Source: Escherichia coli
GTDB taxonomy: Bacteria > Pseudomonadota > Gammaproteobacteria > Enterobacterales > Enterobacteriaceae
Strand: one strand, 5' to 3'
Assembly: GCF_003334255.1 (NCBI RefSeq)
Contig: NZ_QOWU01000060.1
DNA length: 31,035 bases
Part shown: in pieces, positions 11,763 to 18,473 of the stretch
Position numbering within the stretch: position 1 is the stretch's first letter
Layout: each line of letters opens with the position of its first letter
The notes under the pieces: generated by a model
Told to the model about the DNA's origin: nothing
Database searches by the model: none
The model's input: only the letters and a program-made list of their open reading frames with translations
Position numbers and translations under genes: made by a program

Positions 11763-11789
11763 CATTCAATGCCCCATTTGCGGGGCTAA

Positions 11790-11880
11790 TTTCTTGTCGG
11801 AGTGCCTTAACTGGCTGAGACCGTTTATTCGGGATCCGCGGAACCTGATCAGGCTAATACCTGCGAAGGGAACAAGAGTT
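11790..11880 (+). promoter_or_regulatory. TPP (thiamine pyrophosphate) riboswitch / THI-box in the thiC leader
   Basis: Conserved THI-element core CGGAGUGCC...GCUGAGA...GAACCUGAUCAGGCUAAUACCUGCGAAGGGAAC, 90-180 nt upstream of the thiC ATG. Confidence 0.88.
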
Positions 11881-11965
11881 AATCTGCTATCGCATCGCCC
11901 CTGCGGCGATCGTCTCTTGCTTCATCCGTCGTCTGACAAGCCACGTCCTTAACTTTTTGGAATGA

Positions 11966-16203: not shown

Positions 16204-17333
16204 AAACCTTCAGCGATCGCTGGCGACAACTGGACTGGGACGACATCCGCCTGCGTATCAACGGCAAAACGGCTGCTGACGTAGAGCGGGCGCTAAATGC
16301 CTCGCAACTCACCCGCGACGACATGATGGCGCTGTTATCGCCTGCCGCCAGTGGCTATCTGGAACAACTGGCCCAACGGGCGCAGCGTCTGACCCGTCAG
16401 CGATTTGGCAACACAGTTAGTTTCTACGTCCCGCTTTATCTTTCCAATCTTTGCGCTAACGACTGCACGTACTGTGGATTTTCCATGAGTAATCGCATCA
16501 AGCGCAAAACGCTGGATGAAGCGGATATTGCCAGGGAAAGTGCCGCTATACGGGAGATGGGCTTTGAACATCTGCTGTTAGTCACTGGTGAACATCAGGC
16601 GAAAGTGGGGATGGATTACTTTCGTCGTCATCTCCCTGCCCTTCGTGAACAGTTCTCTTCACTACAGATGGAAGTGCAACCGCTGGCGGAGACGGAATAC
16701 GCCGAGTTAAAGCAACTTGGTCTGGATGGCGTGATGGTTTATCAGGAGACATATCACGAGGCGACTTATGCCCGCCATCATCTGAAAGGCAAAAAACAGG
16801 ACTTCTTCTGGCGGCTGGAAACGCCGGATCGGCTGGGGCGTGCGGGGATTGATAAGATAGGCCTCGGCGCGCTAATTGGCCTTTCCGACAACTGGCGCGT
16901 TGACAGCTATATGGTTGCCGAACATTTGCTATGGCTGCAACAGCATTACTGGCAAAGCCGTTACTCTGTCTCCTTTCCGCGCCTGCGCCCGTGTACTGGC
17001 GGCATTGAGCCTGCGTCGATTATGGATGAACGCCAGTTAGTGCAAACCATCTGCGCCTTCCGACTGCTTGCACCGGAGATTGAACTGTCACTCTCCACGC
17101 GGGAATCACCGTGGTTTCGCGATCGCGTTATTCCGCTGGCGATCAATAACGTCAGCGCCTTCTCGAAAACGCAGCCAGGTGGCTATGCCGATAATCACCC
17201 CGAGTTGGAACAGTTCTCACCGCACGACGATCGCAGACCGGAAGCGGTTGCTGCCGCGTTAACCGCTCAGGGTTTGCAGCCGGTATGGAAAGACTGGGAC
17301 AGCTATCTGGGACGCGCCTCGCAAAGACTATGA
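16200..17333 (+). CDS. thiH: 2-iminoacetate synthase (tyrosine lyase, radical SAM)
   Basis: 377-aa ORF with radical-SAM CANDCTYC motif; ATGA overlap with the thiG stop. Confidence 0.96.
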
Positions 17334-17580
17334 GACGGAATGTAAGAACGTAAATTTATTCCGAGCCGCTACGGAAGATGAAAAACGCAAGGTTGTTGAA
17401 AGCGTTGTGTTTTTTTATGGTAGTGCCGTCAGCAGGAATGTTGTCCAGGGCGAAAAGCTTCTTCCTCGTTTCGCCCTGCCTTTCTTAAAAATTCCGTAAT
17501 GCAAAGTCTGAAGCCATCGCCTGTTGAGCAATGAAAGAGATCTGATTGTAAGAGAGTAAATACTCAACTATGATAGAGAC

Positions 17581-17745
17581 GAAAATAAGAACACATGTTC
17601 TCATCTTCCAGGATGCAGCAGACTGAAGAAATTCAGACATCCCGCAACCTGCGATTATCGCAAGGTCAAGGCAAAGTCCGGTAATGGCGTTCTGAATACC
17701 AGAGATAATTCTCTGGCGAAACCCACCTTAAGGTGGGTTTTGTTA
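17581..17745 (+). ncRNA. sroH: candidate small RNA in the thiH-yjaZ spacer (sroH-like)
   Basis: Sigma70-like promoter -35 TTGTAA (17546-17551), 17-bp spacer, -10 TATGAT (17569-17574), then about 165 nt to a terminator (stem AACCCACC-uuaa-GGUGGGUU, tail UUGUUAUUUU, 17714-17745). From memory, a ~160-nt sRNA sroH was reported between htrC/yjaZ and thiH; strand and exact ends not verified. Confidence 0.4.
17714..17745 (+). terminator. rho-independent terminator (plus-strand), abutting the yjaZ stop
   Basis: AACCCACC-TTAA-GGTGGGTT followed by TTGTTATTTT on the plus strand; the tail on the minus strand is not U-rich. Confidence 0.6.
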
Positions 17746-18282
17746 TTTTGAGGGCTGAGGAAGCTGCTTATTTCTCAATAAGTTGTAGGCAATGGTGAAA
17801 AATTTCACTGATTTACCTTTCTGTTTTTCAGAAATGGGATAAGCGCTAGTTACATGCAAACGGAGTTTTTTCTTTTCCCTGAAAGCCCTGAACGCAACAA
17901 AGTAAAATGCCTTATCTCCTCCGTCTAAGTCCACCTCAATCACGGCATAGCTACCATACCCGGCATGAATAACGTTGCTTTCTGGCAGCGCCAAAATAGT
18001 TCTTTTTAAGTGTGTGCGCGCTAAGTTATAACGGTGCTGGCAGAAGGGACGAGATTCTTTAGGCGCGTGGTACATTAACGATTGTTTTTCTTCGTTCGTC
18101 TGATGTTCATAATCTTTTGTGAAGCAGTGAAGAGAGTAGGTAACCCAAAAGCGATACTCTAAAGGCTCTTTGCCCTCATGATGCTGAACGTAGACAGCCT
18201 GATGAGCATCAAGAAATGATAAATCACGAATATCACCATCCGGATGTCCAAAAGGTCGCCACTTTTCCACTTCCTGTTTCAT
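17743..18282 (-). CDS. yjaZ: conserved protein YjaZ (HtrC, heat-shock-associated; function unknown)
   Basis: 179-aa ORF MKQEVEKWRPFGHPDGDIRDLSFLDAHQAVYVQHHEGKEPLEYRFWVTYSLH...; RBS AAGGAA; directly downstream of rpoC on the same strand, as in K-12. Confidence 0.9.
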   Translation of the reverse strand: MKQEVEKWRPFGHPDGDIRDLSFLDAHQAVYVQHHEGKEPLEYRFWVTYSLHCFTKDYEHQTNEEKQSLMYHAPKESRPFCQHRYNLARTHLKRTILALPESNVIHAGYGSYAVIEVDLDGGDKAFYFVAFRAFREKKKLRLHVTSAYPISEKQKGKSVKFFTIAYNLLRNKQLPQPSK

Positions 18283-18447
18283 TCTCGTTCCTTAAGAAAG
18301 TTACACAGGAATAGTATCGAATCCTTGCCGAGTTTGACTCAATTAGTTCAGTCAGTTTCAGGATATTAGTCATCTCTACATTGATTATGAGTATTCAGAA
18401 ATTCCTTAAATATTCTGACAAATGCTCTTTCCCTAAACTCCCCCCAT

Positions 18448-18473
18448 AAAAAAACCCGCCGAAGCGGGTTTTT
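18448..18473 (-). terminator. rho-independent terminator after rpoC
   Basis: Minus-strand RNA AACCCGC-uucg-GCGGGUU followed by UUUUUUAU, 22 nt after the rpoC stop; an A-tract on the other side makes it potentially bidirectional. Confidence 0.8.

Follow-up and report, generated by a model that had tools for sequence, protein, structure and literature searches.

The window analysed here, a stretch of 31,035 nucleotides from Escherichia coli (contig NZ_QOWU01000060.1 of assembly GCF_003334255.1), contains the thiCEFSGH / yjaZ / rpoC region, and this work concerns the small RNA (sRNA) SroH encoded between thiH and yjaZ. The open reading frame (ORF) of thiH ends at 17333, yjaZ is located on the minus strand with its TAA stop codon at 17743-17745, and rpoC is found at 18495. 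These ORF ends bear out the 409-bp spacer between thiH and yjaZ (17334-17742) given in a preliminary description of this DNA, which had been made from the sequence alone and had suspected an independent sRNA in the spacer. The sroH-yjaZ pair consists of the following features:

17546-17574, plus strand: sroH promoter, TTGTAA, 17 nt and TATGAT, obtained by promoter scan; the -10 box ends 6 nt before 17581.
17581-17749, plus strand: SroH small RNA; the annotated extent, which is also that of Rfam, is 17581-17741.
17743-18282, minus strand: yjaZ (formerly htrC), encoding a basic protein of 179 amino acids; ORF with a match to NCBIfam NF007263 and a product identical to YJAZ_ECOLI.

The covariance-model search for the sroH family that had been suggested earlier was performed, and Rfam RF00372 (sroH) matched the window with 201.1 bits (E 1e-49) at 17581-17741 (+), covering model positions 1-161 of 161 and exceeding the curated gathering threshold of 80 bits. 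In the K-12 annotation the non-coding RNA sroH (b4691) occupies the same place, at a distance of one base from the yjaZ end, and the order thiH-sroH-yjaZ, with sroH convergent to yjaZ, is the same in the window and in K-12. The full-length Rfam match and b4691 confirm the sroH gene that had been named for this locus earlier. Covariance models built in this analysis score the window RNA with 145-180 bits. The near-consensus sigma70 promoter predicted at 17546-17574 was recovered by the scan and fits the 5' end at 17581. By itself the promoter scan is at chance level, with one site against 0.8 expected from shuffles, and the promoter is credible because of its spacing to the annotated 5' end and because it recurs at other loci, 39 of 49 loci having a sigma70-type promoter (at least 9 of 12 matches) ahead of the homologous RNA. 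At the other end, a terminator hairpin AAACCCACC-TTAA-GGTGGGTTT at 17720-17741 is followed by the T-rich tail TGTTATTTT. This hairpin is the sole helix in the Rfam consensus structure for sroH and was not called by a simple terminator scan of the window. At the homologous loci, too, the RNA is closed by a covarying terminator throughout. The transcript probably ends in the U-tract at 17742-17749, and the overlap between terminator and yjaZ stop codon that had been described holds for the U-tract, which covers the stop codon, but not for the core stem. An independent plus-strand sRNA of about 165 nt, as postulated, is supported by a promoter and a terminator of its own, here and at loci without a nearby thi operon, and the promoters across loci indicate that the RNA is independently transcribed everywhere, with a likewise conserved geometry of its 3' end towards yjaZ. 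It is virtually certain that the element in the window is SroH and that it is an independent gene, unrelated to the thiamine genes. As a gene SroH is already known; its entry in the E. coli catalogue is two decades old, and it was reportedly first detected in the RNomics screen of Vogel et al. in 2003. Full-length and processed forms have been reported, SroH is turned over in a manner dependent on poly(A) polymerase and had not yet been assigned a function (PMC5389530), and a Northern blot indicates that SroH rises strongly in stationary phase (bioRxiv 10.64898/2025.12.22.696124).

Comparison of homologous RNAs reveals that SroH is a six-helix pseudoknotted fold, which goes beyond a simple promoter-to-terminator transcript. 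Helices P3 and P4 are contained within the junction closed by P2, and the remaining parts are as follows:

17581-17610, plus strand: Escherichia-type 5' leader with a small hairpin, unconserved in the alignments of other lineages; it holds the ATG of a 29-codon ORF.
17611-17642, plus strand: P1 (17611-15/17638-42) around the loop CAGCAGA (17616-22), together with the variable hairpin P1b (17623-27/17632-36).
17618-17695, plus strand: pseudoknot of CAGA (17619-22) with UCUG (17691-94), extended by a G.A pair (17618/17695).
17643-17689, plus strand: P2 (17643-46 with 17685 and 17687-89), closing the junction and abutting P1.
17699-17716, plus strand: P5 hairpin, CCAGAGA-UAAU-UCUCUGG, with 7 of 7 pairs compensatory.
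17717-17750, plus strand: P6, the terminator hairpin (17717-27/17732-42) with its U-tract, the tail lying over the yjaZ stop; 9 of 11 pairs compensatory.

For the whole fold, 96.8% of the cells are paired among 50 sequences and 31 of 42 pairs are compensatory, in covariance alignments that are biased toward the modelled helices but not toward the pseudoknot. Compensatory changes affect 3 of 5 pairs in P1, 5 of 5 in P1b and 4 of 4 in P2, where 99.5% of the cells are paired, and P1 and P2 presumably stack on each other. The junction contains the P3 hairpin (17647-66), which ranges in length from about 15 to more than 100 nt, the small P4 (17670-79) and the near-invariant unpaired segments GGUC and CGGUAA. 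Although the pseudoknot lies outside the covariance model, 99% of its cells are paired and two of its pairs are compensatory; the G.A pair extending it swaps to A.G in five sequences and in diverged RNA copies the pseudoknot is CAGG/CCUG. The covariation score of 0.441 compares with 0.163 after shuffling (0 of 500 shuffles reach it) and with 0.04-0.08 when the partners are slid. G-U pairs (96) greatly outnumber A-C pairs (10), which places the fold on the sroH strand. There are 41 nearly invariant positions, many of them unpaired, and the thermodynamic minimum free energy (MFE) fold has a z-score of -5.57. A long-range pairing AGGAUGC/GCGUUCU, proposed by MFE folding and by RNAalifold, was rejected since covariation backs the local P1 and the pseudoknot; among homologues, GGAUG/CAUCC of P1 is replaced by GAGUG/CACUC or GGGUG/CACCC. 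The distance from the end of the -10 box to P1 is 7-9 nt in about 20 loci, whose RNAs are therefore leaderless, and about 30-38 nt in the E. coli type.

In order to locate homologues, a protein-anchored scan was carried out with one genome per species and yielded 66 loci. When only YjaZ homologues of at least 39% identity with enough flanking sequence were considered, the covariance models placed the RNA convergent to yjaZ and abutting its stop at 43 of 44 loci, in Erwinia, Pantoea, Serratia, Enterobacter, Aeromonas, Marinomonas, Ferrimonas, Psychrobacter, Glaciecola, Lonepinella, Methyloprofundus and about 20 cyanobacteria; Pasteurellaceae are among the hosts. The sole exception is a metagenome-assembled genome (MAG) of Thiomargarita (locus L043, 2228-2362 (+)), in which the close yjaZ has no convergent RNA and a copy of the RNA truncated at its 5' end is found upstream in the same orientation; this may be a rearrangement or an artefact of MAG assembly. 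Plasmid-encoded YjaZ homologues with 60-78% identity, from E. fergusonii, Raoultella and other Enterobacteriaceae, are found in unrelated neighbourhoods with umuDC-like, ArdC, ParA-like and TraJ genes, and each of these yjaZ genes has a convergent Rfam sroH match that ends 1-2 nt past its stop codon. For distant YjaZ-like proteins (26-37% identity), a diverged RNA was detected at the same place and on the same strand in 10 of 15 loci when filters were switched off, and these RNAs keep the architecture and the compensated helices GGGUG/CACCC and CAGG/CCUG. The diverged variant (loop ..ACAGGG..) scores 14-26 bits, is detected only with filters off and occurs in Pseudomonas, Vibrio, Erwinia, Pantoea and Izhakiella (loci L063, L065, L066, L068, L071 and L074-L077, at about 3046-3206 on the minus strand).

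The reverse search started from the RNA. A 16-base RNA pattern gave many chance matches, which were removed with the covariance model, leaving as real 9 of 32 viral matches and 29 among the 80 metagenome loci listed. An abutting convergent yjaZ accompanies 26 of these 29 verified metagenome matches and 7 of the 9 verified IMG/VR matches, in samples that are small and obtained with a pattern favouring conserved copies. Of 46 loci with an ORF, 35 have the stop codon of the partner between -2 and +6 nt from the last model position, and no third conserved gene was found at the loci, the largest cluster of flanking genes reaching 4 of 49. RNA and protein have diverged together, their divergences being correlated with a Mantel r of 0.73 that none of 2000 permutations reached. 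Non-enterobacterial copies rescored with Rfam sroH obtained 45-79 bits, below the 80-bit threshold, and are covered by no other Rfam family. Searching species-representative genomes for an exact pattern taken from the P1 region of SroH gave no match; the pattern had fixed the variable P1b stem, and the representative E. coli genome in that scan may lack the sroH-yjaZ cassette described below. The comparisons strengthen the link between sRNA and yjaZ that had been suspected earlier, and indicate that both genes are inherited together across phyla. A functional tie between SroH and yjaZ is very probable, and the distribution of the two genes points to an autonomous, horizontally mobile two-gene module. 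A literature search pairing sroH with antitoxin or htrC found no paper linking sroH to yjaZ, and SroH seems not to have been recognised before as the E. coli copy of a pseudoknotted RNA that is widespread and bound to the YjaZ family.

Within E. coli, the pair forms part of an accessory block. The features of this block and of its surroundings are:

About 17498-18442, no strand assigned: low-GC cassette of about 945 bp, comprising the sroH promoter, sroH, yjaZ and the yjaZ upstream region, delimited by alignment with strain GN05064.
18283-18442, minus strand: yjaZ upstream region (promoter and 5' untranslated region, UTR) inside the cassette, 88.7% identical between two Escherichia lineages.
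18450-18473, minus strand: rpoBC terminator hairpin (inverted repeat I7), just outside the cassette at the right-hand insertion boundary.
17334-17497, plus strand: thiH-proximal part of the spacer, found in essentially all E. coli and located outside the sroH-yjaZ cassette.
17380-17415, plus strand: hairpin of an A-tract and a U-tract, followed by UAUGG, from the MFE fold of 17334-17500 (z-score -4.44).
17446-17478, plus strand: GC-rich hairpin of 10 bp with arms CAGGGCGAAA (17446-17455) and TTTCGCCCTG (17469-17478) and a 13-nt loop, followed by CCTTTCTTAAAAATT (inverted repeat I5).

Among 5426 complete E. coli genomes, sroH and yjaZ are present in 3741 and absent from 1685 (31%). In cassette-less genomes rpoC directly follows thiH and the block at about 17498-18442 is replaced by a 21-nt filler; the thiH-proximal 164 nt with both hairpins, matching query positions 1-164 with 97-99% identity, and the rpoBC terminator are kept. 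The GC content of the cassette is 0.38-0.46 compared with 0.54-0.62 in the flanks. As the block is absent from 31% of the genomes, is low in GC and is flanked by retained terminators, the long spacer is explained by an accessory cassette inserted between two terminators. The preliminary description had taken the spacer for part of a compact core region, which is wrong, since its right-hand two thirds belong to this cassette. The cassette is old within Escherichia, being located at the same place in a lineage that is 5.4% diverged over 5.5 kb, and its loss is reported to be patchy among the phylogroups of E. coli (PMC3318445). Between the two Escherichia lineages compared, at a synonymous divergence of about 0.28, the SroH core shows one difference in 135 nt, whereas adjacent non-coding DNA differs by 9.6-11.3% and yjaZ by 8.8%, and the RNA is therefore under very strong purifying selection. 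Together with the Rfam E value and the folding z-score, this near-identity takes the feature well outside what chance would give.

Some further observations relate to the edges of the cassette. The filler of the cassette-less allele, AGAATTGCCCTCTGAATAACA (GN05064, L001 at about 2665-2690, junction 17498/18442), contains TCTGAATAACA, one mismatch away from the invariant SroH segment UCUGAAUACCA (rough p of about 0.08); this likeness could be a deletion remnant or chance. A perfect 12-nt inverted repeat, GTTTTTTTATGG / CCATAAAAAAAC, is present on both sides of the cassette (17409-17420 and 18444-18455), and its arms correspond to the T and A tracts of the terminators on the thi side and of rpoBC. 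The cassette edges also contain a direct repeat of 11 nt (AATGCAAAGTC/AAGGCAAAGTC) and an inverted one of 10 nt (TTCTGAATAC/GTATTCAGAA), both at the chance level for 1.2 kb. In the thiH-proximal spacer no Rfam family was found at the permissive threshold of E<=1. The hairpin at 17380-17415 is a candidate bidirectional intrinsic terminator of the thi operon, and the second hairpin, which had been proposed for this role earlier and is present both in the fold and in the inverted-repeat search, is an alternative candidate. A 36-codon ORF starting with ATG at 17378-17488 (+) overlaps both hairpins.

The RNA was also found on 104 PLSDB plasmid records. On ColE1-type plasmids of 2.4 kb the module is the sole recognisable cargo, and on a Serratia IncFII plasmid (L086) yjaZ and the RNA adjoin a tyrosine recombinase. 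One such small replicon is the Proteus plasmid pB1022 (L081) of 2462 bp, whose sole recognisable cargo is yjaZ with the RNA. A metagenome contig (L193, coverage of about 3984x) contains two copies with a spacing of exactly 2462 bp, which points to tandem assembly of a circular unit. The two genes are lost asymmetrically, in that orphan RNAs are recurrent and an orphan yjaZ was seen once. On IncF plasmids of Klebsiella, Citrobacter and E. coli (L083-L085) the RNA is intact and the slot of yjaZ is held by a relBE cassette; the layout of these three loci is a DUF2913 gene, the RNA (in L083 at 5991-6129, 118 bits), convergent relE/relB and a tyrosine recombinase. Orphan RNAs from metagenomes keep a few codons of the 3' end of yjaZ. 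In O157:H7 (L239) an out-of-frame deletion of about 62 nt in yjaZ (equivalent to 17812-17873) removes the invariant YjaZ motif KKLRLHVxSAYP (residues about 137-157), and SroH is 99.6% identical. Further truncated YjaZ clusters occur in E. coli, Shigella and E. albertii. Two phage-like contigs (L093 at 1732-1862 (-) and L151 at 4336-4466 (+)) carry the RNA without yjaZ, and on both a same-strand TATAAT-like box and a 156-amino-acid ORF lie downstream of the RNA; here the RNA may have another use or another partner.

YjaZ has a pI of 8.4-9.6 and is predicted by a structure model to be globular (predicted local distance difference test, pLDDT, of 87). A ratio of non-synonymous to synonymous substitutions (dN/dS) of 0.18 between the two Escherichia lineages indicates purifying selection. 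The NCBI name for NF007263 is 'stationary phase growth adaptation protein', and the earlier heat-shock assignment of YjaZ (htrC) has been retracted (PMC11551758). About 70-80 residues of the model superpose best on the RelE/ParE/HigB toxins, which is a weak signal, and profile comparison with RelE gave an hhalign probability of 0.2. There were no matches of YjaZ to Pfam-A, PADLOC, PHROGs or PDB sequences, the search of AFDB50 returned only uncharacterised relatives, and structure comparison did not find a ToxN/AbiQ/Kid/MazF-like fold.

With regard to function, the target of SroH is probably its own partner YjaZ, for which it would most likely be a dedicated antidote or regulator. The structured core of the RNA would bind the YjaZ protein in the fashion of a type III antitoxin, and SroH may also pair with yjaZ mRNA at its 3' end when transcription has passed through the shared hairpin, in the fashion of 3'-overlapping type I systems. 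Direct recognition of YjaZ is favoured because antisense pairing alone would not need a fold conserved across phyla, and pairing with read-through mRNA may add to it because on the yjaZ strand the hairpin is then followed only by UUUCGCC. P6 would be a constitutive terminator placed on the yjaZ stop codon. SroH would in this manner restrain a potentially harmful, possibly RNase-like YjaZ; on plasmids the two genes together would amount to an addiction or stability module, in chromosomes to a small island. The patchy distribution, the relBE swap, the orphan RNAs and the weak RelE-like signal fit a selfish module of the toxin-antitoxin kind, and both the poly(A)-dependent turnover (PMC5389530) and the stationary-phase rise (bioRxiv 10.64898/2025.12.22.696124) are compatible with an antidote. 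All functional statements made here are derived from sequence. That SroH works as an antidote or negative regulator of YjaZ is held with slightly less than even confidence. In similarly tentative terms, a little short of probable, sroH-yjaZ is proposed as the founding case of an undescribed RNA-protein module, in which a single-copy, convergent, pseudoknotted RNA of about 135 nt neutralises or controls a protein of the YjaZ family and which has spread horizontally; judged by the loci found, such a module would reach Gammaproteobacteria, cyanobacteria, plasmids and phage-like elements.

Several points weigh against an antidote. Both the toxicity of YjaZ and its binding by SroH, whether physical or antisense, are putative, and the purifying selection on yjaZ (dN/dS 0.18) suits any useful protein equally. 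The known overlap of sroH and yjaZ comprises only the U-tract and the stop codon, and a longer duplex requires read-through of yjaZ. Complementarity of the RNA to the translation-initiation region of yjaZ was absent in comparison with shuffles (mean z +0.27, n=43). According to the account of Hobbs 2010 given in PMC5389530, a K-12 sroH deletion is viable and only sensitive to envelope stress, which is unexpected for the loss of an essential antidote unless the chromosomal yjaZ is weakly expressed. SroH is also enriched in photoactivatable ribonucleoside-enhanced crosslinking and immunoprecipitation (PAR-CLIP) of Hfq (bioRxiv 10.1101/2020.06.29.178624) and binds kbl mRNA in vitro (PMC6172242), and these two results leave room for trans targets.

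A different kind of partnership would have SroH as a positive component, a structural, guide or substrate RNA, of a YjaZ ribonucleoprotein with a benefit for the host, be it stationary-phase or stress adaptation, defence or anti-defence. The co-inheritance, the co-divergence and the conserved fold are equally expected in this case, the invariant unpaired bases of the junction hint at a surface for specific binding, selection on yjaZ is purifying, and both the NCBI family name and the accumulation of SroH in stationary phase (bioRxiv 10.64898/2025.12.22.696124) agree with such an adaptation. However, intact RNAs persist where yjaZ has been deleted, truncated or replaced, as on the IncF plasmids, in O157:H7 and among the metagenome orphans, and the reverse, a yjaZ without the RNA, is almost unseen given the RNA at 43 of 44 loci. 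As a cofactor RNA should be useless without its protein, the existence of orphan RNAs weakens this explanation, and both the positive role and the benefit attached to it are considered unlikely.

Still less likely is that SroH is an ordinary trans-acting sRNA assisted by Hfq, directed at kbl or envelope functions, and that its adjacency to yjaZ is incidental. The Rho-independent terminator with its U-tail, the Hfq PAR-CLIP enrichment (bioRxiv 10.1101/2020.06.29.178624), the gel shift with kbl mRNA (PMC6172242) and the envelope-stress sensitivity of the deletion mutant (Hobbs 2010, in the form in which PMC5389530 cites it) speak in favour of this role. On the other hand, the RNA occurs beside yjaZ on plasmids, on viral contigs and in cyanobacteria, which do not share the chromosomal context, its conserved bases are mostly located in helices, pseudoknot and junction and not in an accessible seed, and it is absent from 31% of E. 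coli genomes. Furthermore, SroH is not an established Hfq target, and its overexpression caused no biofilm or motility phenotype (PMC4606813).

An aptamer-like junction of several helices, the pseudoknot, invariant unpaired bases and a terminator facing the 3' end of yjaZ might also suggest a riboswitch-like sensor, in which a ligand controls termination at P6 and read-through transcripts silence yjaZ by antisense pairing. However, the terminator stem varies (CCCACC, GGCUCC, CCCGC) while the core is invariant, and a stem that covaries freely beside an invariant core makes a conserved anti-terminator pairing impossible. SroH is a stand-alone convergent RNA outside any 5' UTR and Rfam contains no related riboswitch, so that a sensor is very improbable.

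The transcript might instead be a 3' UTR or a processing product of the thiCEFSGH operon, as it lies downstream of thiH on the same strand and neither upstream hairpin is a proven terminator. The preliminary description had named continuity with thiH as the finding that would speak against an independent sRNA, and the comparative data contradict it: the distance between promoter and annotated 5' end is right, dozens of loci without thi genes have the RNA together with a promoter of its own, and the cassette that includes sroH and its promoter is distinct from the thiH-proximal spacer. The presence of promoter and terminator at homologous loci without a thi operon therefore excludes a thiH 3' UTR, with hardly any doubt remaining.

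A small mRNA, with a 29-codon ORF at 17595-17684 or a 23-codon ORF from the conserved AUG in P1, can practically be dismissed: the AUG of GGAUG is near-invariant, as is the UAA of CGGUAA, and the two are in frame in E. coli, but among 48 homologues the UAA falls in frame 0, 1 or 2 in 21, 11 and 16 cases, ORFs from the conserved AUG are erratic in length (1 to 36 codons with early stops, or with the stop absent), the upstream ATG lies in the unconserved leader and no Shine-Dalgarno sequence is evident, so this candidate was rejected and SroH is non-coding.

The antidote reading was compared with known systems. In ToxIN (type III), the toxin is an endoribonuclease, which a pseudoknotted antitoxin RNA inhibits by binding to it; this RNA is encoded as a tandem repeat array upstream of the toxin gene in one operon and is processed by the toxin. 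Like type III systems, sroH-yjaZ is a mobile, plasmid-borne two-gene module of an RNA and a protein with a conserved pseudoknotted fold. Unlike ToxIN, SroH is single-copy and convergent with its own promoter and terminator, so that it lacks the tandem-repeat layout, YjaZ is without a ToxN/Kid-like fold, and both binding of YjaZ by SroH and toxicity are putative; indirect pointers to binding are the conserved pseudoknotted fold, the co-divergence of RNA and protein and the basic character of YjaZ. Type I systems with 3'-overlapping convergent RNAs are known from B. subtilis (txpA/RatA and bsrG/SR4), and in E. coli the pairs SymE/SymR and RalR/RalA are type I systems with enzyme toxins. The convergent RNA gene whose 3' end overlaps the partner gene and the patchy, island-like distribution resemble type I, whereas the demonstrable overlap is only a few nucleotides, the partner is a soluble basic protein of 179 amino acids and not a small hydrophobic peptide, the fold is conserved across phyla and there is no pairing with the start region of yjaZ. 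The turnover of SroH, which depends on poly(A) (PMC5389530), recalls that of Sok-type antitoxins. As to RelE, ParE and HigB, part of the YjaZ model superposes on these toxins and relBE occupies the yjaZ slot of related IncF plasmids, but profile or sequence similarity of YjaZ to RelE/ParE was not found. In Listeria, an RNA controlled by a B12 riboswitch is antisense to pocR. SroH likewise is a structured, sensor-like RNA followed by a terminator and facing a convergent gene, but it has no conserved anti-terminator, no known ligand and no match to an Rfam riboswitch. By its predicted mode of working SroH would be most like an RNA antitoxin, yet it is filed neither under type III nor under type I because it fails the layout and toxin type of the former and the small-peptide toxin of the latter.

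Two other RNA elements were detected elsewhere in the window. A thiamine pyrophosphate (TPP, THI-box) riboswitch at 11788-11888 (+) scores 74.8 bits against an Rfam threshold of 54.3 and is presumably the leader of thiC. An Rfam match to 'Pseudomonas sRNA P26' at 27077-27138 (-) scores 74.5 bits (threshold 36) and lies upstream of rpoB, presumably in the rplL-rpoB spacer.

With respect to the Rfam sroH family, the element in the window is the same as K-12 b4691, with the same neighbours and strand; the Rfam structure, however, consists of the terminator only, the 80-bit threshold excludes the non-enterobacterial copies tested, and in the literature found SroH figures as an orphan sRNA of E. 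coli to which no function has been assigned. The comparisons describe instead a deeply conserved, structured and mobile RNA that is tied to one protein family across phyla and is not an E. coli-specific regulator. The comparative picture offers a concrete and inexpensive experimental way into the function of SroH and YjaZ. If the two do form an antidote-toxin pair or a ribonucleoprotein, this would be a new architecture among the few RNA-based toxin-antitoxin systems, and it would explain why some E. coli phylogroups have the cassette and others lack it. Rfam RF00372 would then be due for a rebuild with the real secondary structure and a much wider membership, and the widespread, uncharacterised YjaZ family (Pfam PF27200) would gain a function.

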